A stretch of DNA of 64,000 nucleotides from a virus (lineage: Duplodnaviria > Caudoviricetes). The notes under the pieces are model-generated. The model made no database searches. It was not told the origin of the DNA and saw only the letters and a program-made list of their open reading frames with translations. The DNA lies in the IMG/VR virus record IMGVR_UViG_3300028864_000017. One strand, given 5' to 3'. A program made the translations under genes and the position numbers. The stretch's first letter is position 1. Every line of letters starts with the position of its first letter. This document shows positions 3,767-60,365 of the stretch, one piece after another.

Positions 3767-4225
3767 ATGTCTGAAAACGAAGATTTAGATTCACGTCAAA
3801 AGTTACAAAAAAAGATGTTAGAATCTACTAAACAATGGATTGCTATTGTAAATAAATTAACTGGTAGATTAATTCATGATGATTTGAAAAATATTGCAGA
3901 TATTCAAGCTGAAGCAATAAGTCAAAGACAAATGGTAGTTGAAGAAATAAAAAATTATAGTGTTAAAATACATAAACTTGTTCAAAAAACAAAGGTATTA
4001 ACAAAAGCTAAATTTGAATTCTACGCAACATCATATCAAGTTAAAACTTCTGGAACTGAAAAATTGAGATTAATTGAAGCAGATTTATCTGAACATCAAT
4101 GTTTTATAAATGAATTAGATGAACATGTTAATTTTTTAAGAGATACATCTAAAAATTTAGAATCAATAAACTATTCTGTTAAAGCTAAAATTGAACTTGC
4201 AAATATACTAGGAGGATATAAATAA
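3767..4225 (+). CDS. uvsY: UvsY-like recombination mediator protein
   Basis: 152-aa helical protein with FYAT...IEADL...VNFL..T.KNL....YSVK..IE pattern; sits just upstream of uvsW as in T4-like phages. Confidence 0.6.
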   Translation: MSENEDLDSRQKLQKKMLESTKQWIAIVNKLTGRLIHDDLKNIADIQAEAISQRQMVVEEIKNYSVKIHKLVQKTKVLTKAKFEFYATSYQVKTSGTEKLRLIEADLSEHQCFINELDEHVNFLRDTSKNLESINYSVKAKIELANILGGYK

Positions 4226-4464
4226 TGTTAATCAATGAAGAATTAAAAACCTATGGAATTAAATCAGCTTCTATGATATCAGAAGGAATATTTAAACCAA
4301 GAATTATTATAAAACATTTAGATAACTCTGTATATAGTTATTATGTAAATGAAGAAATAATATCTATTGAATTATTAAATGATATAATTAATAAACATAT
4401 TAATACTGTTTGTATAAAAAAAATCAGAATTAATAAATTAAATGAAATAGATGAAAATAGATGA
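4225..4464 (+). CDS. Hypothetical protein with C-terminal RxxKLxxI tag
   Basis: Ends IRINKLNEIDENR; coupled to its neighbours. Confidence 0.6.
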   Translation: MLINEELKTYGIKSASMISEGIFKPRIIIKHLDNSVYSYYVNEEIISIELLNDIINKHINTVCIKKIRINKLNEIDENR

Positions 4465-4636
4465 ATTAGCATATAAAATATTCCTTGATGAATTTTATGC
4501 TAAATTTGATTTCAAATCAAAAATTTATGGGGATTATAATTTTTTTTTAAAAAATAAAAAAAGTTATAAAAAATATTATATAAAAGCAAATTCTATCATA
4601 AGAAAAGAAAAATTAAAGGCACTAAATGAAATTTAA
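4451..4636 (+). CDS. Hypothetical protein with C-terminal RxxKLxxL tag
   Basis: Ends IRKEKLKALNEI. Confidence 0.6.
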   Translation: MKIDELAYKIFLDEFYAKFDFKSKIYGDYNFFLKNKKSYKKYYIKANSIIRKEKLKALNEI

Positions 4637-6182
4637 ACTAAATAAAGATAATTCAAAATTAATTTTAACTGAATCAACCAAAGGAGAATATAATCAACTT
4701 AAACTATATTTAACAAGAAAAGTTAATAATTATCGTTTTATGAAAAGATTCAAACTCGGTGTTTGGAATGGCGATATAAGCTACTTTTCAGACGGAGTAA
4801 TTAACTTTGGCTTATGGGGTGAAATATATAAATGCTGTAAAGAGTATGGTTACAAATTTATAATAGAAAATCAAGACCAATTTCCACGTAATAAAGATAT
4901 ATCAAAAGATAATTTACAAGAATTTATTGAGGATTTTTATAAAGATCATAAAACTCCTGATGGTAAATCATTTATGCCTTATGAGCATCAAGTAGATGCC
5001 ATATATCAATTACTCAAACATCAATATGGGTTAATTGAAATCGCAACTGCTGGAGGTAAATCATTAGTATTTGGTACTCTACTTTTTTATTACTTAAAAA
5101 ACGTAAATCAAAAAGCGAAAGTTCTATTGATTGTTCCAAGTATAAGTTTAGTTACACAATTTTATAATGATTTGAATGACTATAACTACGGTTTCAATAA
5201 TGATAATAAAACTCCATTAGATATTCGTATAGATGAAGTAATGAGTGATAAACCAAGAAAATATAGAGAAGGTGAAAAATTACCTAATGTATATATTGGT
5301 ACTTATCAATCTCTTGAAAAATATCCAAAAGAGTGGTTTTCACAATTTGAAATAGTCGCCTGTGATGAGGCTCATACAGCTAAGGCTGTTACCATTCAAA
5401 CTATTTTAACAAAAACTTTTGGAACTGCTAAATTTAGATTTGGTATGAGTGGTTCTTATCCATCTGATGCTTCAGTTGAAATATTAACTATTCAATCATT
5501 ATTGGGTCCAAAATTATTAAATATTAGTGCAAGAAAGTTAATTGATAAAGGATTAATTTCTGATCTTAAAATAAAAGTTATTATGTTACATCATGATAAT
5601 CATAAGTTTGCAGAAGGAGTTAATAGTATTAAAAAGTCAAATGGACAGCAAGCTTGGACGTTGGAAAGAGAATACATACACAATTCAGCTAAAAGAATGA
5701 CATTCATTAAAAACTTAGTAGATAAATTCAAATCAAATTCACTTATATTATTTCATACTATTGTATATGGTACAGAATTATATAATCACATTAAAGATAA
5801 TTGTATTGGAAAGGATGTATTCTATATGGATGGTGGCACATCTACTGAGAAAAGAGAATATATTAAGAAAAAACTAGAAGATACATCAGGTAATCCTAAA
5901 ATACTCATAGCATCATTCGGTGTATTTTCAACAGGTGTTTCTGTGAAAGCAATTGCTAATATTATCTTTGCAGATTCTTACAAAGAACCTAAAATAATAC
6001 GTCAGGCAATTGGTAGAGGATTGAGATTACATAAAGAAAAGTCAAAACTAATAGTGTTTGATTTGGTTGATATTTTTCATCCTGATTATAAAACAATATT
6101 GTGGAAACAATATGAATCAAGAAGAGATGAAGTATATAAATTACAACAATATCCATATGACGAATTAAAGATTAAACTATAA
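4626..6182 (+). CDS. uvsW: UvsW-like SF2 DNA helicase
   Basis: Walker A ATAGGKS, DEAH box (CDEAH), motif III GMSGS, motif V STGVS, motif VI QAIGRGLR. Confidence 0.9.
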   Translation: MKFKLNKDNSKLILTESTKGEYNQLKLYLTRKVNNYRFMKRFKLGVWNGDISYFSDGVINFGLWGEIYKCCKEYGYKFIIENQDQFPRNKDISKDNLQEFIEDFYKDHKTPDGKSFMPYEHQVDAIYQLLKHQYGLIEIATAGGKSLVFGTLLFYYLKNVNQKAKVLLIVPSISLVTQFYNDLNDYNYGFNNDNKTPLDIRIDEVMSDKPRKYREGEKLPNVYIGTYQSLEKYPKEWFSQFEIVACDEAHTAKAVTIQTILTKTFGTAKFRFGMSGSYPSDASVEILTIQSLLGPKLLNISARKLIDKGLISDLKIKVIMLHHDNHKFAEGVNSIKKSNGQQAWTLEREYIHNSAKRMTFIKNLVDKFKSNSLILFHTIVYGTELYNHIKDNCIGKDVFYMDGGTSTEKREYIKKKLEDTSGNPKILIASFGVFSTGVSVKAIANIIFADSYKEPKIIRQAIGRGLRLHKEKSKLIVFDLVDIFHPDYKTILWKQYESRRDEVYKLQQYPYDELKIKL

Positions 6183-6257
6183 ACTTTATTTAAAAAATTA
6201 TATATATATTACTTATGAAAATTAATTTACATTCTCCGCCAATCATCATCATTAACG

Positions 6258-6479
6258 ATGATGAAAACAATATCTAAAACTCGACTTTGGAGAGTCGAAA
6301 TCGTAAACCGTAATGGTTACGAAGCTCCATCAATATTGATTGAAGCTAAATTAACTGAAGTACACAAAGATGTACAAAAATTAAACTTAAGATTATTAGA
6401 TTTTCCTAACAAATGGAGTTATCATTTGATTGATCTTGAAAAAAGATTTGATGACAGAAAGGGTAAATGGGTAGATTAA
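6258..6479 (+). CDS. Hypothetical protein
   Basis: 73-aa ORF followed by a palindromic terminator. Confidence 0.55.
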   Translation: MMKTISKTRLWRVEIVNRNGYEAPSILIEAKLTEVHKDVQKLNLRLLDFPNKWSYHLIDLEKRFDDRKGKWVD

Positions 6480-6480
6480 A

Positions 6481-6514
6481 ATAAAAAAGACTGTCAATTG
6501 ACAGTCTTTTTTAT
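6481..6514. terminator. Bidirectional intrinsic terminator (perfect 34-bp palindrome)
   Basis: ataaaaaagactgtcaa|ttgacagtcttttttat between convergent genes. Confidence 0.8.
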
Positions 6515-30304: not shown

Positions 30305-31786
30305 ATGCTTGTAGATTACGAATATAAAAATAACAATTTAATATTAAGTTTTATAAACTCCAAAGGTAATATTGAACTTAAATATTATCCTTGGGCTAGA
30401 CCAACAAAATTCATAAAAACTACTGATGATGATTCAGAAAAAAGTGGTAGATATGTAACCTGGGATGGCTCCTCAGTAAAGGAAATTTATTCAAAATATC
30501 CAAATCGTTATTCAGTTTATGATTTTATTGATAGTTTTGATAAAAAAGAAAGGGATGAAATTTATTCATATAATGAACCTGATATATTCTTTGTAGATAT
30601 AGAAAATGAGATATTAGACAAAAAACCTGAGCCTCATTTAGCTGAAAGTGCAATTCAAACAATTTCAATTGTAAATAAGAATAAAGTGTTAGTAATTGGT
30701 ACAGAACCATTAGATTCCAAACAAATTTTAAGTATAGAATCCGATTTGGTTACATACTTCAAAAAATTTGATATTGATTATAAATTTAAGTATATTCATT
30801 ATAAAACTGAATTTGATATGCTTCATGCATTTTTTAATAAATTAGTTCCAAAGATGGCTGTAATAACTGGTTGGAATTTCATTGGTTATGACTGGACATT
30901 CTTAGTTGCAAGAGCTAGAAAATTAGGACTTGAACCTGAGGTTGCATCATTCACAAGAAAACTTAATAAACCATTCAACCCACCAAATGCAATACATCCA
31001 GATTATTCTGAATTACCTGCTCATAGAGTTATTGTTGATTATATGGAATTATTTAAGAAATGGGATCAATCTGTTAAAGTTAAAGAAAGTTTATCACTTG
31101 ATTTTGCATCTGAAAAAATACTTGGTAAAGAGATTAAGAAAATTAACTATGATGGTGATTTAAAAAGATTACACAGAGAAGATTTTAAAAAATTCGTGTT
31201 TTATAATGCAGTAGATAGTTGTCTTGTACAAAGGATTCATGAAAAAATGAAATATGTAGACATTCTTTATGGTATGGCTGTATTAGGTAAAATTAAGATT
31301 AAAGATGCTATTTCTACTCTTGCTCTAACAGAAGGAATTTTAAGAGAGAAATTAAGAGATCAAAAAAATATTGTACTTGTAAGAAATGAAGATAGTGAAT
31401 ATGGAGACACAGAATCTGAAGCTATAAAAGGAGGATGGGTTAAAGATCCAGTAAGAGGTATGGCAACATGGACATGTTGTTTTGACTTTGCATCTCTATA
31501 TCCTACAACAATGAGGGAATTTAATATATCAGCAGATTCATATAAAGGACAAAAAGTAAAAGGAAAAGACTACTCAATTTTTAATGGACATCAATTAGAA
31601 ATTGATTCTGATGATATTGTTACTCTAAATGGTTCAGTATTTAAGAATGAAGACGGAGTTGTTACTCAAGTAATGGCTGAAGTATATTCAGATAGAAAAA
31701 AATGGAAGAAAGTAATGAATCAAAAGCACGAAGAACTTGAAAAATTAAAAGATGAATTAAAAAAATTAGAAGAAACTGCATTATAA
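30305..31786 (+). CDS. gp43: Family-B DNA polymerase, N-terminal subunit (T4 gp43A-like: 3'-5' exonuclease + motif A); split polymerase
   Basis: ExoI FVDIE, ExoII GWNFIGYDW, ExoIII YNAVD, motif A DFASLYP; ends in the fingers helix; motifs B and C absent. Confidence 0.85.
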   Translation: MLVDYEYKNNNLILSFINSKGNIELKYYPWARPTKFIKTTDDDSEKSGRYVTWDGSSVKEIYSKYPNRYSVYDFIDSFDKKERDEIYSYNEPDIFFVDIENEILDKKPEPHLAESAIQTISIVNKNKVLVIGTEPLDSKQILSIESDLVTYFKKFDIDYKFKYIHYKTEFDMLHAFFNKLVPKMAVITGWNFIGYDWTFLVARARKLGLEPEVASFTRKLNKPFNPPNAIHPDYSELPAHRVIVDYMELFKKWDQSVKVKESLSLDFASEKILGKEIKKINYDGDLKRLHREDFKKFVFYNAVDSCLVQRIHEKMKYVDILYGMAVLGKIKIKDAISTLALTEGILREKLRDQKNIVLVRNEDSEYGDTESEAIKGGWVKDPVRGMATWTCCFDFASLYPTTMREFNISADSYKGQKVKGKDYSIFNGHQLEIDSDDIVTLNGSVFKNEDGVVTQVMAEVYSDRKKWKKVMNQKHEELEKLKDELKKLEETAL

Positions 31787-33660: not shown

Positions 33661-33896
33661 AAAATACAACAGTAGAGAGTTATTTATTATCTATTGAGGC
33701 ATTAGGAGAAAATATTATAAAAAAAATAAAAATTTCTGCATATACAGATGATGTAGCATGTTATAATGTAACTTATTTTGATGTTGAATTAGCAAAAAAT
33801 AGAAAAAAATTAATCACTATTAAATTATCTGAATATCATTTATTTATAAATAAATTGATTCGTAAACAAAAACTTCAAAAACTATCTGAATATTAA
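33657..33896 (+). CDS. Hypothetical protein with RxxKL tag
   Basis: Ends IRKQKLQKLSEY. Confidence 0.6.
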   Translation: MKNTTVESYLLSIEALGENIIKKIKISAYTDDVACYNVTYFDVELAKNRKKLITIKLSEYHLFINKLIRKQKLQKLSEY

Positions 33897-33916: not shown

Positions 33917-34786
33917 ATGGAAAAAACTTTAGATATTACTGAGAAAAAGAGTGCTGCTTTTTTGTCTGTTATTGCATCAGGAGCATTGACTATATTTAAG
34001 CTAATTGTTGGTTTATTAACAGGTAGTTTAGGAATATTGTCGGAAGCATTACACTCAACTTTGGATATGATAGCTGCTATTATAACATATTTTTCTGTTA
34101 GAATTTCAGATAAGCCTGCAGATAATGAACATAATTATGGACATGGTAAAGTAGAAAATTTGTCAGCATTTGCAGAGGCCATATTATTAGCAATTACAAG
34201 TATTTGGATAATTTATGAATCAATAACAAAGTTAATTTTAAATGATTTTAATGTTGAAGTGACTATATGGAGTTATGTGGTTATTATATCATCTATTGTA
34301 ATTGACATAAATAGATCAAGAATGCTTAAAAAAGTTGCATTAAAATATAATAGTCAAGCATTAGAAGCTGATTCTATTCATTTTAAAACCGATATATGGA
34401 GTTCATGTGTTGTTTTAGTAGGGTTGATTCTTGTTAATTTTAATATACATTGGGCAGATTCAATTGCAGCATTAGGTGTTGCCTTTATCATAATTTTAGT
34501 TTCTTATAGATTAGCTAAAAACGCAATTGATGTTCTGTTAGATAAAGCGCCAGAAGGTGTAAGAGATATTATAATAGAAATATTAAATAATCATGAAGAA
34601 GTTAAAATATACCATGATTTAAAAACCAGAAGTTCAGGAGCAGATACTTTCATTAAATTTGACTTGCATTTGAATCCAGAACTAAGTTTATTAGAAGCTC
34701 ATTCTGTTTGTGACAAAATTGAAATTGAGATTAAAGAAAAAATAAAAAGAAGTGAAATTTATATTCACATAGAACCAAACGAATAA
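33917..34786 (+). CDS. Cation diffusion facilitator (FieF/ZnT-like) metal transporter
   Basis: Six TM helices; ALHSTLD (TM2), HNYGHGKVE, ADSIHFKTD (TM5); C-terminal dimerisation domain with AH..CD and IHIEP. Confidence 0.9.
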   Translation: MEKTLDITEKKSAAFLSVIASGALTIFKLIVGLLTGSLGILSEALHSTLDMIAAIITYFSVRISDKPADNEHNYGHGKVENLSAFAEAILLAITSIWIIYESITKLILNDFNVEVTIWSYVVIISSIVIDINRSRMLKKVALKYNSQALEADSIHFKTDIWSSCVVLVGLILVNFNIHWADSIAALGVAFIIILVSYRLAKNAIDVLLDKAPEGVRDIIIEILNNHEEVKIYHDLKTRSSGADTFIKFDLHLNPELSLLEAHSVCDKIEIEIKEKIKRSEIYIHIEPNE

Positions 34787-36353: not shown

Positions 36354-37694
36354 TTATAATAATTCATTAGCTATATTTGCTAATTCAGATCTTTCACCTT
36401 TCTCTAATGTTACATGAGCATAAATTGCCTGATTTTTTATCTTTGCTATTAAATGTGATAATCCATTACTTTGTGCATCCAAATATGGAGTATCAATTTG
36501 ATTTATATCACCAGTAAAAATAATTTTAGTTCCTTCTCCTGCTCTTGTTATAATTGTTTTAATTTCATGTGGAGTTAAATTTTGAGCTTCATCAACAATG
36601 AAAAATACATTAGATATACTACGACCACGAATATAAGCTAATGGAGTAATAACTAATTTTTCATCTTTAACGCAATCTTGAATAAATTTATATTCTTTAT
36701 CACTATCTTTGAATTGACTTTGTATAAATTTTAGATTATCCCAAAGTGGAAGCATATATGGACTTATTTTCTCATCAACTGAGCCAGGAAGATAGCCTAA
36801 ATCCTTACCACTCAATGGTATAATTGGTCTAGCTAAAAATATTTGTTTAAAATTTCTCTTCTGACTAAGTGCTGCAGCTAATGCCAATAAAGTTTTTCCT
36901 GTTCCAGCAACTCCTTGTAACGATACTAGTTTGACATCAGGGTTTAGTAATGCATGTAATGCGAATACTTGCTCAGAATTTCTTGGTGTTATTTTATAAC
37001 AAGTTTCTTTATCAATTCTTTCAACCATTTTTTTTGATGCATTGTAATATGCTAATGCAGATGCTGCCGAAATAGTTGATTTAATAATAAGATATTTATT
37101 GTTTAGTAAATTTGTAATTCCAAGTTCTTGAGGAGTACAAACATTATCTTGATATAATTTAGTAATAATGTCATCATTATCTAATTCTATTGTTGATCTA
37201 CCTGTGAATAATTTATCAGTATCTTTAATTTTACCTGTTAAATAATCTTCTGAGTTAACATTTAAAGATTTTGCTTTTAATCTTAAATTTATATCTTTTG
37301 ATACAAGTATAATCTTTTTATCAGGATATTCCTCTACCAATGACAATGCGGTATTTAAAATTAAATGATCTGGTTTTGTTGATTTGAAAACTAAACAAGC
37401 ATCAGTTGTTCCAGTTGTTTCATTCATCACTACTTTTACTCTACCTTTTCCTTTGCCAATAGGAATCCACTCACTTAAATTACATTTTGATGCTAATTTG
37501 TCTGTTTTTCTAATAAATTCTCTTGCTTCATAATTAATTGTATCATTACCTTTTTTGAAATCATCTAATTCTTCGAATACTGTAATAGGAATTGCAACAT
37601 CATTTTCTTCAAAATTGTAAATTGCATTGTGATCGTAAAGTATTACACTTGTGTCAAGTACAAATATTTTATCACTTTTTTCTTTTTTAGCCAT
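36354..37694 (-). CDS. phoH: PIN-domain PhoH-family ATPase (PhoH2/YlaK-like)
   Basis: N-terminal PIN VLDTSV...ELD; Walker A GVAGTGKT; YIRGRS; IVDEAQN; GD..QID; ERSELA. Confidence 0.9.
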   Translation of the reverse strand: MAKKEKSDKIFVLDTSVILYDHNAIYNFEENDVAIPITVFEELDDFKKGNDTINYEAREFIRKTDKLASKCNLSEWIPIGKGKGRVKVVMNETTGTTDACLVFKSTKPDHLILNTALSLVEEYPDKKIILVSKDINLRLKAKSLNVNSEDYLTGKIKDTDKLFTGRSTIELDNDDIITKLYQDNVCTPQELGITNLLNNKYLIIKSTISAASALAYYNASKKMVERIDKETCYKITPRNSEQVFALHALLNPDVKLVSLQGVAGTGKTLLALAAALSQKRNFKQIFLARPIIPLSGKDLGYLPGSVDEKISPYMLPLWDNLKFIQSQFKDSDKEYKFIQDCVKDEKLVITPLAYIRGRSISNVFFIVDEAQNLTPHEIKTIITRAGEGTKIIFTGDINQIDTPYLDAQSNGLSHLIAKIKNQAIYAHVTLEKGERSELANIANELL

Positions 37695-37724: not shown

Positions 37725-38213
37725 TTAATTTTTATTATATATTTTATATGTATGGTCATAATCATTCTTTTCGTCTTTTGATTTAAATTCTTCTGATACA
37801 CAATACCATTTATCGTCAAGTTCTGGAAAAGTTGTATCTCCATCTATAATAGTAAGAACTACAGTCAAATATACAGTATCTGAAATATCTAAAAATTGTT
37901 TGTATATACTACCACCTCCTGTTATAAAAACTTCATCTCCATACATGTTAGCTGTTTCTAATGCATCTTCTATTGAATATACTGGAATAGTATCAGGTTC
38001 ATTAAAACTCTTGTCTAATGTCAATACTATATTTGTTCTATTTGGTAATGCTCCTTTTGGTAAAGAATAAAATGTTTTATCACCCATGATAATAGGTTTA
38101 TTAAGAGTCAATTCTTTGAATTTTTTAAGATCACTGCTTAATCTCCACAATAATTTATTATCTTTTCCTATCACCAAATTTTCTGATACTGCTACAATTA
38201 TATTTACTTTCAT
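37725..38213 (-). CDS. folA: Dihydrofolate reductase
   Basis: IIVAVSEN.VIG.DNKL.W....DLKKFKELT...IIMG.KT..SLP...LPNR.NIVLT; GGGSIY. Confidence 0.95.
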   Translation of the reverse strand: MKVNIIVAVSENLVIGKDNKLLWRLSSDLKKFKELTLNKPIIMGDKTFYSLPKGALPNRTNIVLTLDKSFNEPDTIPVYSIEDALETANMYGDEVFITGGGSIYKQFLDISDTVYLTVVLTIIDGDTTFPELDDKWYCVSEEFKSKDEKNDYDHTYKIYNKN

Positions 38214-49301: not shown

Positions 49302-49619
49302 TTATTGGTAAAAAGATTTAATTTTTTTGCAATATCCTTTATATTTTGTTGGAATATCACTATCAAAATCACAAATATTCCATTCCTGTTGATTAATCAT
49401 TGAAGATAATGTTCTTTGGGAATTTTCTCCAAACATTATCTTATGAGAAGGATGAGAATCTACCCAAGCTCCATGTAGCATACTCCAATAAACTAATGAT
49501 TCCCATTTAGTTGAAATTTCCATTGGACAAAATAATTCTACAGTATCACCAGCATATATATTTTTACCAAAATCATCTTTGTATATTAAATATTTCTTCT
49601 TATAATTTTGTATTGTCAT
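49302..49619 (-). CDS. YopX-like hypothetical protein
   Basis: KDDFGKNIYAGDTVEL resembles the YopX DxxGxEIYEGDIV motif. Confidence 0.45.
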   Translation of the reverse strand: MTIQNYKKKYLIYKDDFGKNIYAGDTVELFCPMEISTKWESLVYWSMLHGAWVDSHPSHKIMFGENSQRTLSSMINQQEWNICDFDSDIPTKYKGYCKKIKSFYQ

Positions 49620-49818
49620 TTGATTTAGAAATTATTTCATTTAATTTATCAAGTCTTATTTTTATTTTTTCTTTTCTTATTTGTTCAATCTTATATTGTT
49701 GACTTAATATAGTCCACTCCTTTAACATGCTAGTAACTGAATTTGTCTTTATTTGATCAGGTAATTCATCTCGACTGAATTTAACATCAAATTTTGTTTC
49801 GTCTATTGTTATTTTCAT
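49600..49818 (-). CDS. Hypothetical protein with RxxK[LI] tag
   Basis: IRKEKIKIRLDKLNEI near the C-terminus. Confidence 0.6.
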   Translation of the reverse strand: MKITIDETKFDVKFSRDELPDQIKTNSVTSMLKEWTILSQQYKIEQIRKEKIKIRLDKLNEIISKSNDNTKL

Positions 49819-50399
49819 TTTAATTTTTTTAATTTTTTATATCTAATATATGATTTTGTTTCTTGATGTTCATAATAACTCCAAATTTCTTTCAATTGAG
49901 ATTCATCTTTAATACGACTTTCATCATCAATCTCTATAACATTAACATAAAATGTTTTTGGTGTGAAAGGAATTTTTATTGTTTGTTTGCTTGTAATACT
50001 TTCATTCTTATTATTAAGTGCTCCGCCAGTATATGATGAATTATTTTCATCAACAAAAACAATTGCATCCAAATAATATGGACTACCATCAGTTGATACT
50101 TTAAAAACAGCACTACAACGATTATTCTGAAATAACATTTCACTATCATCCATAGTCACATCAATCCATTCATCATCAGTACACATGATAGGTGCAATTG
50201 GCTTAAAATTAGCTAATTTTGTAAAATAACTAATAGCATATGACGCTGAAAACCCAGAATGTCCTTGTTTAGAAAAAACTTCTAGTAACTCTAACACATT
50301 TTCTTGTACCCATTTATCTGGATCATTTTCACATTCTTCAACAGGTTTATAACCTATTTTTAGAAATTCTCTTTTAGCGTGTTCTATTAAATTACTCAT
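49815..50399 (-). CDS. Hypothetical phage protein with RxxKL tag
   Basis: HAKREF...VLELLEVFSKQGHSGFSA...QNNRCSAVFK; ends IRYKKLKKLK. Confidence 0.7.
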   Translation of the reverse strand: MSNLIEHAKREFLKIGYKPVEECENDPDKWVQENVLELLEVFSKQGHSGFSASYAISYFTKLANFKPIAPIMCTDDEWIDVTMDDSEMLFQNNRCSAVFKVSTDGSPYYLDAIVFVDENNSSYTGGALNNKNESITSKQTIKIPFTPKTFYVNVIEIDDESRIKDESQLKEIWSYYEHQETKSYIRYKKLKKLK

Positions 50400-50709
50400 T
50401 TTTATTATCTACTATTTTTCCAAGTTTATTTCTTCTTAATATATTATTAAATACTTTGTATAATTCTGTATCAGATTCTAATTTATTTATGATTTGATTT
50501 GCTTCTAATATCAACAATTTTTCATGCTCATTTTTTTTTTCATCTTCAGTCATATTCAGAAGTCTATCAATTTCACATCTATAAACATCTAATTGATTTT
50601 TTTTTAATTCTTTAAATAATTTATTGATTTGTTCGAACTGTTTATTACTTTCATAAAATGGATTAATTGAATTGATTATAGTTTTTATTATATCTTTAAA
50701 AAGTTTCAT
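50392..50709 (-). CDS. Hypothetical protein with RxxKL tag
   Basis: Preferred start MKLFK at 50709 (ATGA overlap); ends LRRNKLGKIVDNKNE. Confidence 0.6.
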   Translation of the reverse strand: MKLFKDIIKTIINSINPFYESNKQFEQINKLFKELKKNQLDVYRCEIDRLLNMTEDEKKNEHEKLLILEANQIINKLESDTELYKVFNNILRRNKLGKIVDNKNE

Positions 50710-50969
50710 TTTAATTTTTTTAATTTTTTTAATTTTTCTTTTCTTGAATTGTAATTTATATATCTGTGACATCTATTACAAGCCCAACTATCTGGCTCAT
50801 ATTGTTTATCTGGTTGATATGGTTTGTGACCATTTATTTTACAAATCAATGGCATAAATGTATCATCAAAAGTAATTCTATCAAAATTTTTAATTAATTT
50901 CCAAGTTTTATTCCAATTCTTATATTTAATATAATGAAATAAATTTTGTGTTTCTCTACCACATCCCAT
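50706..50969 (-). CDS. Small Cys/His zinc-finger-like protein with RxxKL tag
   Basis: LICKINGHKP...WACNRCH; ends SRKEKLKKLKKLK. Confidence 0.6.
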   Translation of the reverse strand: MGCGRETQNLFHYIKYKNWNKTWKLIKNFDRITFDDTFMPLICKINGHKPYQPDKQYEPDSWACNRCHRYINYNSRKEKLKKLKKLK

Positions 50970-51210
50970 AACTATTCAACATTTTTATTTTTAATTTTCT
51001 ATATTCTTTTATTGACATAAAATCACATTCAAGATACCAACTTTGAATAGTGGTTCCAAATTTTACAGAATATAAAATATCAGATAAATTATCTGAATAT
51101 CGATATGAATATCCATATATTTTATATGTTTTATACTCCTTGAGATTCCATCCATAAATATTTTTAGAATTATTTATGAATATAACGTTATCACCAACAT
51201 GAAACTTCAT
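50956..51210 (-). CDS. SH3-like small protein with RxxK[LI] tag
   Basis: MKFHVGDNVIF...YKI...FMSIKEYRKLKIKML. Confidence 0.65.
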   Translation of the reverse strand: MKFHVGDNVIFINNSKNIYGWNLKEYKTYKIYGYSYRYSDNLSDILYSVKFGTTIQSWYLECDFMSIKEYRKLKIKMLNSYGMW

Positions 51211-52464: not shown

Positions 52465-53118
52465 ATGTTTTTTTTTAAAAGTAAAATAAATGAATTGACA
52501 TATTTACGTCAATATACACATCATAGTGATTATGATTCATCAGAAAAAATGAAATATGAATCAATTGATAGTATTATGAAATACTTCAGAAAAATGATTG
52601 ATATTGATGAAAAATGTGGATTATCAATAGAATCAAAATTTAAAGATGTTATTTATCCTGTTTTTGATTTAGATTGTAAATCTAAATATGAATTATTTAA
52701 AACTTTACATGAAGATACTCCATATGTAATATTCATAAGTAGTTGTAACGATGACGATGATGATGAAAAAAAATATCACTATTGGGGAATTATTGGAAAT
52801 TCTAACAAAAAATTCAAAGAATTAATATCAAATCAAAATTGGAAAATCTGCAATGATAATAATTATGTAAAATTTTCAACAGAAATAAGTAAAATTCTAA
52901 TTAGAGGAATATTTGAAAATAAAAATAGAAAGCCAAAATTATTTGAAAAAAATGGTATTCTATCTGAAGATTTTGAAATGTTCATATCTAAATTAGAAAG
53001 TCATTATAATACTAATGGCTTTGAATTGTCAGTATTAAGATATAAGAATACTGAACTATTGATACAATTCAATAGAAAATTAAAATTGAAAAAGATAAAT
53101 TATAGTGAAAAAGAATAA
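52465..53118 (+). CDS. AEP (primase-polymerase) superfamily-like protein with RxxKL tag
   Basis: PVFDLD (DxD), ISS...YHYW (SxxxH-like), CNDNNY (third Asp); ends NRKLKLKKI. Confidence 0.4.
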   Translation: MFFFKSKINELTYLRQYTHHSDYDSSEKMKYESIDSIMKYFRKMIDIDEKCGLSIESKFKDVIYPVFDLDCKSKYELFKTLHEDTPYVIFISSCNDDDDDEKKYHYWGIIGNSNKKFKELISNQNWKICNDNNYVKFSTEISKILIRGIFENKNRKPKLFEKNGILSEDFEMFISKLESHYNTNGFELSVLRYKNTELLIQFNRKLKLKKINYSEKE

Positions 53119-53275
53119 AAAAAATGAAAATATTTTTAATGTAGTTAACTTAGATTTTGCAAGCTTATATCCATCCTCATTTAAAATTGATGAACGATTG
53201 ATTGCTGAGCTAAATAGAAAAAAAACAAATGAAAAAAGACGGCAAAAGCTTGAAAAAATAAATAACTTAAAATGA
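53105..53275 (+). CDS. Unannotated 56-aa ORF carrying PolB motif A and an RxxKL tag
   Basis: GTG start; VKKNKKNENIFNVVNLDFASLYPSSFKIDERLIAELNRKKTNEKRRQKLEKINNLK*; TGA overlaps the next ATG (ATGA at 53272). Confidence 0.65.
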   Translation: MKKNKKNENIFNVVNLDFASLYPSSFKIDERLIAELNRKKTNEKRRQKLEKINNLK

Positions 53276-53791: not shown

Positions 53792-54127
53792 ATGAAAATA
53801 ATACCTATAAAATCAAAAAAACAAGATAATGGTTTGTGGGGTATGCCTAAAAATTGTTATTATATCGAACACTATTTTCAATTAGAAGAAAGAAATGAAT
53901 TTATTTTATCTGCATTAATAAATTGTTTGAATACTAAATTTAATGAGAGATTTGAAATGTCTCTTTTGAGTGAAAAAAAGATTTATTTTAAATTTGAAAA
54001 ACATGGAACTGTGATTCTTTCATTTAATGATTATGAAGTATTTAATGATAAGTTGTATGAATTTGATAATGTTAATGAACATAATATTTTTATGAGAAAA
54101 CAGAAATTAATAGAAATTAATGTATAA
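53792..54127 (+). CDS. Hypothetical protein with RxxKL tag
   Basis: Ends MRKQKLIEINV. Confidence 0.6.
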   Translation: MKIIPIKSKKQDNGLWGMPKNCYYIEHYFQLEERNEFILSALINCLNTKFNERFEMSLLSEKKIYFKFEKHGTVILSFNDYEVFNDKLYEFDNVNEHNIFMRKQKLIEINV

Positions 54128-54410
54128 ATACAACAGCAATTCACCAGAATATCAAAAATTACTTGAAGAATTAAAATTATATTATATAAATATACTTAAA
54201 GAATCAGAGTTCGGATATAATGTATATAGTGTATTAAGATTTATGAAAAGTGATAATAACAATTATGATTATATTGTTTCTGTTAAATTAGAAAAAAAAT
54301 ATAAATTAACAGGATATCATTATGTTATAGAACATCATTATTTATCTGAACTTCAATTAAATAATATAAGCAGAATAAATAAACTGAATAAATTATGTCA
54401 GACAACATAG
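54120..54410 (+). CDS. Hypothetical protein with RxxKL tag; paralog of the next gene
   Basis: Y..LL.ELK.YY...L.ELQ....SRINKLNKL. Confidence 0.65.
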   Translation: MYKYNSNSPEYQKLLEELKLYYINILKESEFGYNVYSVLRFMKSDNNNYDYIVSVKLEKKYKLTGYHYVIEHHYLSELQLNNISRINKLNKLCQTT

Positions 54411-54676
54411 TATCTAATTTAGATACTAAATCATATCTACTGTTATTAAGAGAATTGAAAAAATATTATAACAAAAAATTCAATAATAAATATGATTTTA
54501 GTATTCGTGAAATAGTTAAAGAATTCAATTCATCACTTTATACTGTAGTTATTATATTTCATTATAATAGTAAACATGATAGTTATGAAATTAAAATTTT
54601 AACTGAACTTCAAGTGATTTCAATATTGAGAATATCTAAACTAAATAAAATAAATGAAAGACACAGAATTAACTAA
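54395..54676 (+). CDS. Hypothetical protein with RxxKL tag; paralog of the previous gene
   Basis: YLLLLRELKKYY...LTELQ....LRISKLNKI. Confidence 0.65.
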   Translation: MSDNIVSNLDTKSYLLLLRELKKYYNKKFNNKYDFSIREIVKEFNSSLYTVVIIFHYNSKHDSYEIKILTELQVISILRISKLNKINERHRIN

Positions 54677-54923
54677 CGATGATTTTAAAGTAGGACAAAT
54701 TGTCACTTGTGTAACATTTGATGATAATGATTACTGGGATCAACATTTGACAGTAGGGAAAAAATATAAAATTGAGGATATTGATTGGCATTTTGAAAAT
54801 AAAATTGTGGTAAGAAGTGATAACAAAAAATTGAGTCAATTTGTACCAATACGATTTTTTTCTGATAAAAAAATAATTAGAAAAATGAAATTAGAAAAAC
54901 TGAATAAAATATGTACAAAGTAG
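54654..54923 (+). CDS. SH3-like small protein with RxxKL tag
   Basis: FKVGQIVTC...LTVGKKYKI...RFFS...IRKMKLEKL. Confidence 0.65.
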   Translation: MKDTELTNDDFKVGQIVTCVTFDDNDYWDQHLTVGKKYKIEDIDWHFENKIVVRSDNKKLSQFVPIRFFSDKKIIRKMKLEKLNKICTK

Positions 54924-55243
54924 GAGATATTATGGTTTGTATTGATAATACGCCTAAATCTGATAACATTTTTTATGATTTCATTTCATATTGTTTAAAA
55001 TACAAAAAATCAAATCCTTTAGAAATAAATAAAACATATACCATTAAAAAAATTCAATCATATTGGGATGATGATGGAAATTGCTATGAATTACTTGATG
55101 ATACTAGCAGTAGATATCAAAATACTTCATATATGTTAGAAGAAGTTGAGGAAATATATGGATATACAGTTTTTGATATAAATAGATTTATTGGGTTAAA
55201 AGAATATAGAACATCAAAACTAAAAAAATTAAATGAAATATGA
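54911..55243 (+). CDS. SH3-like small protein with RxxKL tag
   Basis: YKVGDIMVCI...LEINKTYTI...RFIGLKEYRTSKLKKL. Confidence 0.65.
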   Translation: MYKVGDIMVCIDNTPKSDNIFYDFISYCLKYKKSNPLEINKTYTIKKIQSYWDDDGNCYELLDDTSSRYQNTSYMLEEVEEIYGYTVFDINRFIGLKEYRTSKLKKLNEI

Positions 55244-55484
55244 CAAAATTATAGTTGGAGATTTTTTAATTTGCATTAAAAATGATTATACAAATGATAA
55301 CCTCATAACAGTAAATAAAGAATATAAAGTATTAGAAATAGGTAGAAATTATAGTACAATAACAATAATGACAGATGTTGGTATCATATGCGATATAATA
55401 TTTTATTCATTTTTCATTAGTAAAAGAATTTTAAGAAAAAATAAATTGAATAAATTGAATAAAATATTTTGTGAATTGGATTAA
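55233..55484 (+). CDS. SH3-like small protein with RxxKL tag
   Basis: IVGDFLICI...ITVNKEYKV...FFIS...LRKNKLNKL. Confidence 0.65.
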   Translation: MKYDKIIVGDFLICIKNDYTNDNLITVNKEYKVLEIGRNYSTITIMTDVGIICDIIFYSFFISKRILRKNKLNKLNKIFCELD

Positions 55485-55550: not shown

Positions 55551-56945
55551 ATGATTGAGTTAAAAGGTAAATATACAGACGCTAAAATATTTATAGATGA
55601 AGTTGAAGAAGGAGTCTATACACAAATATACAATGTCATTAACTCAGAAACATCTAATGGGTTGAAAGTCAGACTAATGCCAGACGTGCATGTTGGCTCA
55701 GATATTTGTATTGGGTTTTCCATGGAATTGGGTAAGTATCTCAAACCAAGCACTATAGGTGTGGATATCGGCTGCGGGATGCTAAGTGCTAGATTTTCAG
55801 GTAGAACCACATTAGATTTAGAAAAAATTGATAATCTGATACGTGAAAATGTTCCTATGGGATTTGGTATGCACGAAGATATCAAATTTAAAAATATCCC
55901 TTTTGGTGATGTTCAAGTAATTGCAGATAACTTCATTGTAAAATTTAACGAAAAATTTGGGACATCTTATGATTCTCCATCATACAATGATAAATGGCTA
56001 ACATCTAAATTGAAAGATATTGGAATTGATGAAGGTAAATTTTACAAATCTATTGGTACATTAGGAGGTGGTAACCACTTTATTGAACTTGGTAAGTCAG
56101 ATAAGACTAATGATTATTGGGTAACAGTCCACTCTGGGTCAAGAAACTTTGGACTTAAAATTGCGGAATACTGGACTAAAGTTGCAAGAGGTAAAGTATT
56201 TGTTGCAACCAAAGAATATAACATGGAATTGGATGACATTACAATGAATACTTATCCTAAATCTGATATTGATAAAAAAATAAAAGAATTAAGGACAAGA
56301 TACAGTCTTAATATTGACAAAGAATATTTAGATGGTGAGTATCTTATTGGATATCTATTTGATATGATTTTTGCTCAACAATATGCTCTATGGAGTAGAA
56401 AAACAATGTTATCATTGATAAAAAAAGCATTGAATATCAAAAAGTTTGATGAAGAAATTCATTCAATACATAACTATGTTGATTTCAAAGATTTTATCAT
56501 AAGAAAAGGTGCAATCTCATCTTATGTTGGTGAAAAAATGATTATACCATTCAATATGAGAGATGGAATACTTATATGCGAAGGTAAATCAAATGAAGAT
56601 TGGAACAACTCAGCACCACATGGGTCTGGTCGTTTGATGTCAAGATCAAAAGCAAAAGAGTCAATTGATTTAAAAGATTTTCAGAAAGTAATGAAAGGTA
56701 TATATTCAACATCTGTATGTAAAAGTACAATTGATGAATCACCATTTGCTTACAAAAACTCTGATATGATTGAAAAAGCTATCGAGCCTACTGCATTAAT
56801 TCTTGATAAAATAAAACCAATCTTAAACATAAAAGATAAATCTGAAGGTACATCTTGGAAAGATAAGAAAGAGCAAAAAAAGAAAGATAAGCAACGTAAC
56901 AACGAAAGAAATGAAGTTTCTTATCAAAAGATGAAAAAATTCTAA
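55551..56945 (+). CDS. rtcB: RtcB RNA 2',3'-cyclic-phosphate/5'-OH ligase
   Basis: MPDVHVG, GVDIGCGM, GTLGGGNHFIE, VHSGSRNFG, HNY, RKGA, IIPFNM, SAPHGSGR, DESPFAYK. Confidence 0.95.
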   Translation: MIELKGKYTDAKIFIDEVEEGVYTQIYNVINSETSNGLKVRLMPDVHVGSDICIGFSMELGKYLKPSTIGVDIGCGMLSARFSGRTTLDLEKIDNLIRENVPMGFGMHEDIKFKNIPFGDVQVIADNFIVKFNEKFGTSYDSPSYNDKWLTSKLKDIGIDEGKFYKSIGTLGGGNHFIELGKSDKTNDYWVTVHSGSRNFGLKIAEYWTKVARGKVFVATKEYNMELDDITMNTYPKSDIDKKIKELRTRYSLNIDKEYLDGEYLIGYLFDMIFAQQYALWSRKTMLSLIKKALNIKKFDEEIHSIHNYVDFKDFIIRKGAISSYVGEKMIIPFNMRDGILICEGKSNEDWNNSAPHGSGRLMSRSKAKESIDLKDFQKVMKGIYSTSVCKSTIDESPFAYKNSDMIEKAIEPTALILDKIKPILNIKDKSEGTSWKDKKEQKKKDKQRNNERNEVSYQKMKKF

Positions 56946-57606: not shown

Positions 57607-57840
57607 ATGTTTAAATTAGGAGAAATTGTAGTTTGTATTGATGATAGTGATGATACTACTACATATGAACCATATAAAAATTTAAAAAAATACTCAACAT
57701 ATGAGGTAAAGAATGACGGATATTATTTTAATACTATTAGTGTTTCATTAACTGATATAAAAGGAAGATTCAGAGTAACAAGATTCATGTCTGTTAAAGA
57801 ATATAGAAAATTAAAATTAGAAAAATTAAATAAAAAATAA
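57607..57840 (+). CDS. SH3-like small protein with RxxKL tag
   Basis: MFKLGEIVVCI...LKKYSTYEV...RFMSVKEYRKLKLEKLNKK. Confidence 0.65.
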   Translation: MFKLGEIVVCIDDSDDTTTYEPYKNLKKYSTYEVKNDGYYFNTISVSLTDIKGRFRVTRFMSVKEYRKLKLEKLNKK

Positions 57841-57851
57841 AAAAGTAAATT

Positions 57852-59738
57852 ATGGGAAAAATTATTGGAATTGACTTGGGTTCATATAACTCAGCAGTAT
57901 CTATTGTAGAAGGTGGACAAACAATTGTCATACCTAATTCAGAAGGATCAGTATCAACACCATCTGTTGTTGCATTTGATGTGAAAACAGGAGAAATTAA
58001 AGTTGGTGATGCAGCTAAAAGGCAAGCAGCATTAAATCCAAAAAACACAATTTTTAATATCAAAAGACTTATTGGTAGAACTTATGACGAAGTTAAACAT
58101 CTAAAACGTCCTTATGACATTGTAGATAATAATGGTAAAGCTGCTGTAAAAATTGGAGATAGAATATATTCACCAGAAGAAATATCTGCAATCATTCTTC
58201 AAAAAATGAAAAAAACAGCAGAGGATTATCTTGGAGCAAATGTAGAAAGTGCTGTAATAACAGTACCAGCGTATTTTAATTCAGATGAAAGAAGTAGCAC
58301 AAAAGTAGCAGGAGAAATTGCTGGATTAAAAGTAGAAAGAATTATATCAGAACCAACTGCTGCTTCATTAAACATAAAAAATGAAACTGATAAATTATAT
58401 TTTATAATAGATAGTGGTGGTTGTACATCAGATTTTAGTTCAATTTCAATTGAAGATGGCTTATTTGAAGTAATAGCAACAGATGGTAGTTTAGATCTTG
58501 GAGGTAATTTAATTGATGATGCACTTGTTAATTACATTTCTGATGATTTTTTAAAAGAATCAGGAGTAGATATAAGAAAAGATCCTATGGCTCTTCAACG
58601 TGTCACAGAAGCAGCAGAAAAAGCAAAAATTGAGTTATCTAATGTTACACAAACAGAAATCAATTTACCTTATATTACTGCAGTTGACGGAACGCCAAAA
58701 CATTTAGTTAAAACTATAACTCGTGCCAAATTTGAACAATTAATTCAATTTTATGTTGACGAAACAATGAAATTAATTAAATCATCAATTAAAAAAAGCA
58801 ATAAGAATATAAGTGATATTGATGAAATTGTTCTTGTAGGAGGTAGCACAAGAATACCATATTTAGTAGATAACATTGAAAAATATTTTGGTAAGAAATC
58901 TAACAAGTCTCTTAACGCTGATACTGCCATAGCATCAGGGGCTGCTATACAAGGATCCGTTCTTGCTGGAGATACAACTGACATATTATTACTTGATGTT
59001 ACAGCGTTGAGCTTCTGTATTGAAACCATGGGTGGTGTATCAACTAAAATGATAGAAGCAAATACTACAATACCGACAAGTAAGTCACAGGTATTCAGTA
59101 CGGCTTCGGATAACCAACCAAGTGTCCAGGTTAATGTTTGTACAGGAGAAAGACCTATGTATGTAAACAACAAACACTTAGGTACATTTTCACTTGATGT
59201 TCCACCTGCTCGTAGAGGTACACCACAAGTAGAAATCACATTCAGCATTGATAGCAATTCTATTCTAACAGTCAAAGCTGTTGATAAAGCAACTGGAAAA
59301 TCCAATGATATTAGAATTGAAGGTAAATCATCGTTAACAAAAGAAGAGATTGAAAGAATGAAGAATGAAGCTGAACAAAATGCTGATTCAGATAAAAAAG
59401 AAAAAGAGAAAGTTGATAAACTTAATCAAGCAGATTCTATGATTTTTCAAACAGAAAAACAAATTGAAGATTTTTCTGATAAGTTAACTGAAGAAAACAA
59501 AACTGAATTGAATTCTAAGCTTGGTAATCTTAAAGAAGCTCACAAAACTCAAAATGTTGATACTATTGATAACTGCATTAAAGAATTGAATGATTCTTGG
59601 CAAAATATTAGTTCTAAGCTTTATGAAAAATCTCAAAATGAGTCAACAAATGATTCTAATCCAACAAATGAAACTCAATCACCTAATAAAGATGATTCTG
59701 AAAATGTGACAGACGTAGATTTTGAGGAAGTAAAATAA
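57852..59738 (+). CDS. dnaK: Hsp70/DnaK chaperone with divergent nucleotide-binding motifs
   Basis: GIDLG, KRLIG, TVPAYF, EPTAA, LVGGSTRIP, linker ILLLDV, NTTIPT, DNQP, C-terminal DFEEVK. Confidence 0.95.
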   Translation: MGKIIGIDLGSYNSAVSIVEGGQTIVIPNSEGSVSTPSVVAFDVKTGEIKVGDAAKRQAALNPKNTIFNIKRLIGRTYDEVKHLKRPYDIVDNNGKAAVKIGDRIYSPEEISAIILQKMKKTAEDYLGANVESAVITVPAYFNSDERSSTKVAGEIAGLKVERIISEPTAASLNIKNETDKLYFIIDSGGCTSDFSSISIEDGLFEVIATDGSLDLGGNLIDDALVNYISDDFLKESGVDIRKDPMALQRVTEAAEKAKIELSNVTQTEINLPYITAVDGTPKHLVKTITRAKFEQLIQFYVDETMKLIKSSIKKSNKNISDIDEIVLVGGSTRIPYLVDNIEKYFGKKSNKSLNADTAIASGAAIQGSVLAGDTTDILLLDVTALSFCIETMGGVSTKMIEANTTIPTSKSQVFSTASDNQPSVQVNVCTGERPMYVNNKHLGTFSLDVPPARRGTPQVEITFSIDSNSILTVKAVDKATGKSNDIRIEGKSSLTKEEIERMKNEAEQNADSDKKEKEKVDKLNQADSMIFQTEKQIEDFSDKLTEENKTELNSKLGNLKEAHKTQNVDTIDNCIKELNDSWQNISSKLYEKSQNESTNDSNPTNETQSPNKDDSENVTDVDFEEVK

Positions 59739-59767
59739 TTTTTTTAAAATAATTTAAAATAAAAAAT

Positions 59768-59793
59768 AAAGTCAGATTAGTTCTGGCTTTTTT
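59768..59793 (+). terminator. Intrinsic terminator
   Basis: aaagtcaga-ttagt-tctggcttt (one G-U pair) + T-tract. Confidence 0.65.
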
Positions 59794-59797
59794 TATA

Positions 59798-59805
59798 TAT
59801 CTTTG
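59798..59805 (+). promoter_or_regulatory. Bacteroidota -7 element TATCTTTG
   Basis: After a terminator, 28 nt before 59834. Confidence 0.6.
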
Positions 59806-59833
59806 TATCACGAATATTAAAAAATTATAAAAC

Positions 59834-60076
59834 ATGTTCAATATAAATAGGAAACATCTTTGTAAGAAAAACTCAAAGTATTGTATTAAAGGTAATATTT
59901 ATGATATTCATATGATATCTTTTAATTGTATTTCAATATATTTGGATAATTATCCTATTTATGAAAATTTTATATTTGAGGAAGGTTATTATACATATTT
60001 AAATTTTTATGATTATTTTTATACTGAGAAGGAAGAAAGGAAATTAAAATTAGAAAATATTAAAAATGTCAGATAA
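59834..60076 (+). CDS. Small protein with RxxKL tag; paralog of the next gene
   Basis: CK....Y.I...F...YDYFYTEKEERKLKLENI. Confidence 0.65.
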   Translation: MFNINRKHLCKKNSKYCIKGNIYDIHMISFNCISIYLDNYPIYENFIFEEGYYTYLNFYDYFYTEKEERKLKLENIKNVR

Positions 60077-60365
60077 TAAAAAAATAAATAAAGAAAGGAA
60101 ATATCGTTGCAAAGAATCAATATATGGTTTTATAATAAATAAATATTATGAAATTAATGAGATATACACATATATGATTGAGATGCGTATTATTGTTAAT
60201 TATCAATATAATTATTATTGTTTCTCATTAGAAGATGATTATGATTCACTTCCTAATTTTAATAGATTTTTTTATTCTGAGAAAGAAGAAAGGAAAGTAA
60301 AATTAAAACAAATAGAAGAATCACAAAAAATCACAAAAAATAATAATATTTTACTTGAAGCATAA
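60066..60365 (+). CDS. Small protein with RxxKL tag; paralog of the previous gene
   Basis: YRCK...YYEI...FNRFFYSEKEERKVKLKQI. Confidence 0.65.
   Translation: MSDNKKINKERKYRCKESIYGFIINKYYEINEIYTYMIEMRIIVNYQYNYYCFSLEDDYDSLPNFNRFFYSEKEERKVKLKQIEESQKITKNNNILLEA

Follow-up and report, generated by a model that had tools for sequence, protein, structure and literature searches.

A recurrent C-terminal helix on small, mostly unrelated proteins of a large phage: a candidate docking handle

Why should many small proteins of one phage, with little else in common, end in nearly the same short peptide? The question is raised by a 64,000-nucleotide (nt) stretch of DNA (the window), bases 13610-77609 of the 97,084-bp IMG/VR virus record IMGVR_UViG_3300028864_000017 (G000; 22-30% G+C), in which an earlier sequence-only reading had noticed the pattern R-x-x-K-[LI]-x-x-[LI] near the C-termini of numerous proteins. 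A carrier is here defined as a protein with this motif within its last 32 residues, and the motif and its flanks are called the tag. Literature searches found no description of the tag, and it looks like an undescribed address label or handle.

The record is rated 14% complete by CheckV, which for 97 kb implies a genome near 700 kb. Its close relatives are contigs of 140-330 kb; a 711-kb contig holds a homologue of one carrier, and a tagged family found on a related contig has a match in the 642-kb freshwater megaphage LR756502, which has been placed in the group of the largest megaphages outside the Lak clade (PMC9723777). A megablast search with 20 kb of the window found no match among deposited phages. 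Comparisons drew on a 330-kb relative (G001; 616 called genes), on the DnaK-encoding genomes G006 (508 kb, 97% complete) and G007 (597 kb, 98% complete), and on G008 (318 kb, 96% complete) and T4 (169 kb), both of which lack DnaK. Genes were taken as the longest non-overlapping open reading frames (ORFs) by naive calling, and all gene counts are therefore approximate.

The C-terminal motif and the proteins that carry it

All 21 positions listed for the motif in the sequence-only reading proved to be in frame. In the window, 21 of 103 genes have it C-terminally and one, 32304-32597, has it internally, as had been said. Shuffling of whole proteins gave a mean of 0.26 hits and a maximum of 3, and shuffling of the last 40 residues only gave a mean of 0.38 and a maximum of 4 (2000 shuffles in each case), while the 119 non-gene ORFs of the window contain no hit at all. 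A lack of C-terminal enrichment relative to shuffled controls had been named beforehand as a refutation of the idea; the enrichment holds, at 21 versus about 0.3. The whole record has 30 carriers, and in G001 they make up 96 of the 616 genes, with a median length of 92 amino acids (aa); carrier lengths span 50 to 290 aa. The motif is usually followed by 3-6 residues in G001 and by 1-3 in G006, with an overall range of 1-20. A position-specific scoring matrix derived from the tag, applied at 14 bits or more to this record and G001, matched 118 C-terminal versus 5 internal sites.

The choice of residues is strict. When one fixed position was freed at a time, position 0 was occupied by R in 96 proteins and by K in 26, despite a proteome with 2.6% R versus about 10% K; position 3 was K in 96 and R in 2, and positions 4 and 7 held L or I and nearly no V, F or M. 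Such selectivity fits a specific pocket better than bulk physicochemistry. The extended consensus, [YF]-F-Y-[ST]-x-K-E-hydrophobic-R-K-x-K-L-x-K-L-N-x-hydrophobic, is laid out as an aromatic strand leading through an S/T-x-x-E capping box into a helix, and its local flavour is basic (mean tail charge +3.2).

It is the peptide that is under selection. Tag codons vary synonymously (AGA, AGG or CGT; TTA, TTG, CTT, CTA or CTG), with frequencies at the fixed positions that equal genome-wide usage. Of the 96 carriers in G001, 60 overlap or directly adjoin their downstream neighbour; the next gene lies on the opposite strand in 14 cases and more than 30 nt away in 16. With tag codons used as in the rest of the genome and no close downstream neighbour for 30 of the 96 carriers, the constraint does not come from a promoter, recombination boundary or coupling element.

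The bodies to which the tag is attached are mostly unrelated. Once the tags had been cut off, standard BLASTP detected no relationship between any two of the 30 bodies at E 0.01. Only three small paralogue groups emerged when composition correction was switched off (54120/54395, 59834/60066 and a set of five SH3-like proteins), so that paralogy explains only part of the pattern, as had been supposed. The clearest case of modular addition comes from an alignment of 16 Tad3 homologues, in which eight members of the present clade run past ...YY[ED] into a tail of 15-18 residues holding the tag, whereas eight homologues from other phages end at ...YY[ED] without a tail. Tad3, a phage protein, acts on the Thoeris sensor ThsB by binding it directly as a homodimer (PMC13728456).

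Fold prediction places the tag in a helix in both proteins modelled. The AlphaFold2 model of 57607-57840 (pLDDT 85) is an SH3-like beta-barrel, in line with the SH3-like bodies suggested earlier, with a strand at residues 60-62 and a helix at 63-76 that is the tag; in the Tad3-type protein 49815-50399 a predicted terminal helix (182-193) comes after a six-residue loop. Two different predicted folds, then, close with the tag as their final helix, behind the last strand in one and a loop in the other. Foldseek with the first model returned generic SH3-like barrels only, two look-ups in the ESM Atlas returned unnamed viral clusters and weak leads only (sigma-70 region 2/helix-turn-helix, T4 Y07B), and a sequence search with the same carrier found just 7 homologues, all in the clade. 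Pfam scans of 20 window carriers, 10 larger G001 carriers and 10 tagged proteins of distant loci detected just Tad3, a borderline zinc ribbon and a weak ResIII slightly below the cut-off. They gave no F-box match, and no carrier matches DnaJ at E 0.05 or better, so that there is no sign of a J-domain helix II in the tag. Two other bodies named in the sequence-only reading fared less well than the SH3-like ones: the zinc finger is only borderline (DUF1660 at E 4e-4), and the AEP-like enzyme was not recovered, Pfam finding nothing in 52465-53118.

Relatives and the rest of the record widen the range of bodies. An ankyrin-repeat protein of G006 carries the tag. Beyond the window's end, several proteins encoded at 90197-95188 of the record begin MKIRNGFVSNSS, and one member of this family (93760-94398) ends in the R-tag after a CxxC pair. 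In G007, 92 proteins of about 140-350 aa share one 26-residue C-terminal module, E-I-W-N-D-D-L-[ST]-L-N-E-E-N-F-Q-x-L-L-D-E-I-[KE]-D-G-L-[ELQK] (loci L194-L223, about 33-180 kb), and most of its carriers start MKNLI. In one repeat-protein family of that genome some paralogues have the R-tag and others the module, which implies that C-terminal modules are exchangeable.

A further group of tagged proteins is tiny and copies segments of larger proteins. The 51-aa protein of the record and a 65-aa protein of G006 copy the same L-[RK]-K-L-F-T-Y-D-I-V-A-[ND]-P-[AG]-F segment of a protein of 700-760 aa; in G007, the copy of that large protein gives a weak Peptidase_S77 match below the Pfam cut-off. 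The 51-aa and 65-aa copies are conserved between distant lineages. The N-K-N-G-R-I-Y-P-K-E segment of a gp21-type protease recurs in a 53-aa protein of G001, and a 63-aa protein of G006 reproduces W-T-P-E ... I-D ... A-E from a gp23-type capsid protein (E 4e-8). In the window itself, 32304-32597 offers only a hint of a capsid copy (Pfam Gp23 at E 0.002, below the cut-off; BLASTP to a gp23-type capsid protein at E 0.03). The large prohead-protease-like proteins are without the tag. It is conceivable that the tiny tagged proteins could act as decoys or assembly regulators. Overall, the evidence supports a portable C-terminal helix on mostly unrelated bodies.

Operon class, lineage flavours and DnaK

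Carriers had been suggested to be non-virion proteins and described as lacking both a KFN[LI] end and a clear MK-leader, and this picture is supported. The end K[FY]N[LIV] (the KFN end) occurs on 0 of 30 tagged proteins in the record and on 0 of 101 in G001, where about 17 overlaps would be expected if tag and end were independent, and the leader M[KRN][YHKN][IL][KR] is found on 2/101, 0/147 and 0/85 tagged proteins in three lineages. Tagged and KFN genes form separate operons; same-strand neighbour pairs in G001 comprise 42 tag-tag, 71 KFN-KFN and 2 tag-KFN. In G006 (loci L168-L193) an MK-[YH]-[LI]-K leader is present on 37 proteins and the K-F-N-[LI] end is absent, showing that the two ends of the clade's "double tag" are separable in evolution.

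The upstream regions of the two classes also differ. Intergenic regions of G001, G006 and G007 contain two classes of promoter-like motif, TAnnTTTG (often TTATTATCTTTG), which we take to be the Bacteroidota housekeeping -7 box, and TTAATATATA. The second, as (T)TAATATATA, resembles the T4 late TATAAATA and precedes KFN operons. Late-type TATATATA motifs are depleted before tagged operons in all three genomes, and TAnnTTTG is favoured. For tagged versus other operons, TAnnTTTG was found before 12/39 versus 24/144 in G001 (p 0.07), 15/57 versus 21/204 in G006 (p 0.004) and 17/46 versus 69/331 in G007 (p 0.02), and the late-type motif before 6/39 versus 55/144 (p 0.007), 6/57 versus 76/204 (p 8e-5) and 11/46 versus 118/331 (p 0.14), respectively; the effect is clearest in G006, and two of the six comparisons are not significant. 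A third motif of G006, CGTATAT (TCCGTATAT), is enriched before tagged operons (9/57 versus 5/204). Judging from these promoter-like motifs, the tagged genes are presumably expressed early or middle.

A relaxed, anchored form of the motif, R-x3-[LI]-x2-[LI] followed by 1-6 residues, reveals the signal in more distant phages. Observed and shuffled counts were 25 and 0.8 in G000, 86 and 4.1 in G001, 137 and 6.7 in G006, and 84 and 7.3 in G007, with nothing above chance in G008 (3 and 2.9) or T4 (1 and 2.4). Loci anchored on DnaK in 80 viral contigs had 194 anchored motifs in 2003 genes, where 13.5 would be expected; around the Tad3 homologues of other phages there were 7 in 1091 genes, with 7.8 expected.

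Each lineage has a flavour of its own. That of the present clade is R-K-x-K-L-x-K-L-N; that of G006 is R-[DEN]-x-[KQN]-[LI]-N-x-[LI]-[LIF] with 1-3 residues after it, and is near neutral; that of G007 is R-x-x-x-I-N-x-I-L-K. K at position 3 occurs in 55% of cases in G006 and is absent in G007. The carrier 54654-54923 illustrates the shift, as it is 49% identical to a 92-aa orthologue in the distant G006 whose tag is the G006-flavoured RDLKIDKI. What the lineages share is a core of K(-4), R(0), [LI](+4) and [LI](+7), on one helix stripe and near the protein end. Positive charge is thus not the conserved property, and flanks that are fixed lineage by lineage are as expected if the tag co-evolves with a receptor. 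The earlier description of the tag as a basic amphipathic helix accordingly keeps its helix, on the fold predictions, and loses its basic character; binding to membrane or DNA, also suggested then, becomes unlikely as a generic effect of charge.

The gene content of the tag-bearing genomes was searched for a reader. Three tag-bearing lineages have in common 32 families that are absent from G008 and T4, and most are orphans. Pfam on about 20 of them recognised a helicase, poly-ADP-ribose glycohydrolase (PARG) and the ankyrin protein, with weak UvsY-like and pentapeptide-repeat matches, both below the cut-off, and the search yielded no obvious receptor among the 32. The PARG proteins are of the microbial type (G006 438604-439350, G001 272224-273027). 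DnaK is the sole recognisable protein-handling hub among the families specific to tag-bearing genomes, and at 55-83% identity the phage DnaK is conserved across the 80 viral contigs; the tagged small gene beside dnaK is not conserved beyond the closest clade. No J-domain (PF00226) turned up in five related records, each incomplete, and a search of the same number of related records for the gp23 capsid (PF07068) gave nothing usable.

A possible shared reader and the rival explanations

We propose with moderate confidence that the tag is a docking handle read by one co-evolving partner; a common docking signal, as originally suggested, remains the best reading of the data. The tag would be a portable C-terminal alpha-helix of about 12-15 residues, locally hydrophobic-R-K-x-K-L-x-K-L-N-x-hydrophobic, that has been added to numerous small early- or middle-class proteins with unrelated bodies. 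Binders are among them, namely the Tad3 inhibitor of ThsB, the SH3-like barrels and, in relatives, the ankyrin protein and the tiny proteins that copy capsid and prohead-protease segments. R0, L4, L7 and their flanking residues, on one face of the helix, would insert into a groove of a single shared partner, and all carriers would thereby be coupled to the same machine or place. The partner is probably encoded by the phage, given that the flavours follow phage lineage. The ThsB-binding Tad3 and the tagged capsid- and protease-segment copies fit a variable bait with a constant handle.

Several points weigh against this proposal. The search of gene content yielded no reader, and the 32 tag-specific core families are mostly orphans. 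DnaK is a lead as the reader, one confounded by phylogeny, its link with the tag being drawn from three tag-bearing genomes, two tag-free ones and 20-kb loci. The helix adjoins the body directly, with no long flexible linker, and so could pack on the body. Some 100-200 clients competing for one site would need an abundant partner. Finally, early timing is read from promoter-like motifs only, and many tagged operons have neither motif.

Several known systems invite comparison. Poxvirus ankyrin/PRANC (F-box-like) proteins and cellular F-box and SOCS-box adaptors join variable target-binding bodies to a common short C-terminal module that serves one machine. Variable bodies with a constant C-terminal module are found here too (the Tad3 add-on, the unrelated carrier bodies, the ankyrin carrier, the swapping of modules), although the resemblance lies in the logic and not in the sequence: the phage tag is a single helix of about 12 residues, the host is bacterial, and a ubiquitin-like system is not implied. 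ClpX recognises C-terminal motifs such as the LAA of ssrA and the basic RRKKAI of the MuA type, and the XB tail of SspB binds ClpX. These, too, are short, partly basic C-terminal peptides that tether a protein to one AAA+ machine, but their residue pattern and spacing are different, and the phage tag lies at a variable distance from the carboxylate. The capsid-targeting sequence of T4, a short, N-terminal, late and cleaved sorting label on the otherwise unrelated proteins IPI-III and Alt, likewise shows how a short terminal peptide can be common to unrelated phage proteins; the present tag, however, is C-terminal, a leader like that of T4 marks the other (KFN) class, and T4 is without the tag above chance.

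Microcompartment encapsulation peptides and encapsulin cargo-loading peptides are terminal, amphipathic, found on unrelated proteins and read by an abundant shell protein. Their grafting onto unrelated proteins recalls the tag, but their consensus is another one and the phage carriers are small orphan binders, not enzymes; we know of no shell or compartment in these phages. In the HscA-IscU pair, a specialised Hsp70 paralogue reads one short client motif (LPPVK), and the tag does occur in DnaK-encoding megaphages, although Hsp70 binds extended peptides and the tag is predicted to be helical. The features of a MinD/FtsA-type membrane amphipathic helix are not seen, as two positions admit only L or I, R and K are not interchangeable, and G006 is near neutral. 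The coat-binding helix of the P22 scaffolding protein docks by salt bridges plus packing. That protein anchors to coat via Y292-R293-x-x-K296, ten residues from the C-terminus (PMC9965877). P22 and the tag have in common a C-terminal helix in which hydrophobic-R-x-x-K lies some ten residues before the end. The R-x-x-K pair of the tag is conserved in the present clade, with K3 down to 55% in G006 and absent in G007. The P22 element, though, is a helix-turn-helix on one late structural protein, whereas the tag is a single helix on about 100 early-class proteins, lies in non-late operons and does not conserve K3 across lineages.

Of the alternatives to a docking handle, a degron or timer, by which the tag would send early proteins to a host or phage AAA+ protease and clear the early programme, agrees with the C-terminal position and short tail, with the early or middle class of the carriers, and with the recognition of C-terminal motifs by ClpX. 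We hold it to be unlikely: with 1 to 20 residues left to the free carboxylate, the fixed position of a ClpX-type degron or XB tail is not observed, the roughly 20 core families scanned with Pfam include no protease or unfoldase, a host-protease signal is not expected to change flavour between phage lineages, and a directly binding inhibitor such as Tad3 gains nothing obvious from instability. Self-association, in which tags pair or bundle as coiled coils and make binders bivalent or gathered with no separate reader, could draw on the amphipathic i, i+4, i+7(, i+8) spacing, on the predicted helix and on the homodimer as which Tad3 acts (PMC13728456). It nonetheless seems distinctly doubtful, since a zipper would not usually have an invariant R amid its hydrophobic stripe or K in preference to R at position 3, conservation covers no more than two to three hydrophobic positions, and homodimers need no uniformity across about 100 different proteins.

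Virion targeting, with the helix binding the inner capsid or scaffold like the tail of a scaffolding protein and loading carriers for injection, is suggested by the hydrophobic-R-x-x-K spacing shared with Y292-R293-x-x-K296 of P22 (PMC9965877) and by the tiny tagged copies of capsid and prohead-protease segments. It is very unlikely: before tagged operons host-type promoters are enriched and the late-type motif of the KFN operons is depleted, in three lineages the tag and the capsid-targeting-like MK-leader exclude each other, G007 does not keep K at position 3, and the large prohead-protease-like proteins are untagged. Descent from one fast-evolving superfamily, a single small fold of which the last helix alone is still recognisable, would explain the three paralogue groups and the beta-strand and capping box before the helix in the AT-rich clade, and these phages do expand families with conserved C-terminal modules. 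The Tad3 alignment has already largely refuted it, homologues outside the clade having no tail, and the two predicted folds, the ankyrin-repeat and MKIRNGFVSNSS-family carriers, the body family that swaps two C-terminal modules and the 50- to 290-aa range of lengths make it highly improbable. To much the same low degree we credit charge-driven membrane or nucleic-acid binding, or a DNA- or RNA-level element (a promoter, recombination boundary, translational-coupling or nascent-peptide signal). Either might be read from the basic local flavour or from the 60 carriers that overlap or abut the next gene, but the G006 tag, which has D, E or N at position 1, is close to neutral, aromatic residues, V, F and M are not tolerated, the R, L and K codons vary as in the genome, 30 carriers have no close downstream gene, and the motif is always in frame and missing from non-gene ORFs.

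A bolder extension of the docking handle is speculative and, in our view, rather improbable. The tag might be the constant handle of a phage-made adaptor repertoire that couples dozens of early small baits (the ThsB-binding Tad3, SH3-like and ankyrin binders, and capsid and prohead-protease copies that could mimic host-sensor triggers) to one phage-encoded hub, conceivably the megaphage's own Hsp70, which would sequester, unfold or destroy what the baits catch. Such a programmable system for anti-defence or host takeover, if real, would have no described counterpart in phages.

None of the known portable address peptides is described as labelling 10-17% of a phage's genes, being confined to small early- or middle-class proteins and having a lineage-dependent flavour. 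If one reader exists, finding it would provide hundreds of orphan genes of the largest known phages with a first functional attribute, supply a simple sequence rule that separates early accessory from virion-class proteins in megaphage genomes, and could expose a new way for phages to organise anti-defence proteins. The tag is a ready experimental handle too, as a 15-residue peptide could serve in pull-downs or be grafted onto reporters.

Carriers and neighbouring genes in the window

Table 1. Tagged proteins, related features and the phage dnaK gene (window coordinates unless another source is named).
Feature	Coordinates	Strand	Motif position and other evidence
79-aa carrier, tag IRINKLNEI	4225-4464	+	nt 4426-4449, 4 aa before stop
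61-aa carrier, tag IRKEKLKAL	4451-4636	+	nt 4601-4624
168-aa carrier, tag IRDKKLKKI	31801-32307	+	nt 32272-32295
97-aa protein, internal RKKKLKQI after weak gp23-like (major capsid) segment	32304-32597	+	nt 32463-32486
79-aa carrier, tag IRKQKLQKL	33657-33896	+	nt 33861-33884; CGT, CTT, CTA codons
72-aa carrier, tag IRLDKLNEI	49600-49818	-	nt 49633-49656
194-aa Tad3-domain (anti-Thoeris) protein, added tail IRYKKLKKL	49815-50399	-	nt 49821-49844; Pfam Tad3 E 3e-37, residues 2-125
126-aa carrier, tag LRRNKLGKI	50392-50772	-	nt 50413-50436
87-aa carrier, borderline zinc ribbon, tag SRKEKLKKL	50706-50969	-	nt 50721-50744; DUF1660, Pfam E 4e-4
84-aa SH3-like-group carrier, tag YRKLKIKML	50956-51210	-	nt 50977-51000; paralogue of 57607
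217-aa carrier, tag NRKLKLKKI	52465-53118	+	nt 53074-53097; no Pfam family
56-aa carrier, tag KRRQKLEKI	53105-53275	+	nt 53237-53260
111-aa carrier, tag MRKQKLIEI	53792-54127	+	nt 54095-54118
96-aa carrier, tag SRINKLNKL	54120-54410	+	nt 54372-54395; paralogue of 54395
93-aa carrier, tag LRISKLNKI	54395-54676	+	nt 54629-54652
89-aa SH3-like-group carrier, tag IRKMKLEKL	54654-54923	+	nt 54879-54902
110-aa SH3-like-group carrier, tag YRTSKLKKL	54911-55243	+	nt 55208-55231
83-aa SH3-like-group carrier, tag LRKNKLNKL	55233-55484	+	nt 55434-55457; next called gene 66 nt downstream
77-aa SH3-like carrier directly upstream of dnaK, tag YRKLKLEKL	57607-57840	+	nt 57805-57828; AlphaFold2 model
Phage Hsp70/DnaK, context; candidate reader	57852-59738	+	Pfam HSP70 E 2e-197, full length
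80-aa carrier, tag ERKLKLENI	59834-60076	+	nt 60038-60061; paralogue of 60066
99-aa carrier, tag ERKVKLKQI	60066-60365	+	nt 60291-60314; 16 aa before stop
75-aa protein, weak 22nd copy QRENKISSI (motif RENKISSI); doubtful member	60604-60831	+	nt 60751-60774; 18 aa before stop
Small tagged segment-copy proteins, 51-65 aa (the 51-aa one 1.4 kb past the window's end)	record 78979-79134; G001 239071-239232; G006 254059-254250 and 354264-354461		

Other genes of the window accompany the tagged clusters. The family-B DNA polymerase gene at 30305-31786 encodes 493 aa that comprise the exonuclease part and only the start of the polymerase domain, and two small motif-bearing genes come after it; the polymerase may be split or interrupted. 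Auxiliary genes amid the tagged clusters include those for a cation-efflux (CDF) transporter (33917-34786), a PhoH-PIN fusion (36354-37694, minus strand), a dihydrofolate reductase (37725-38213, minus strand) and an RtcB RNA ligase (55551-56945).

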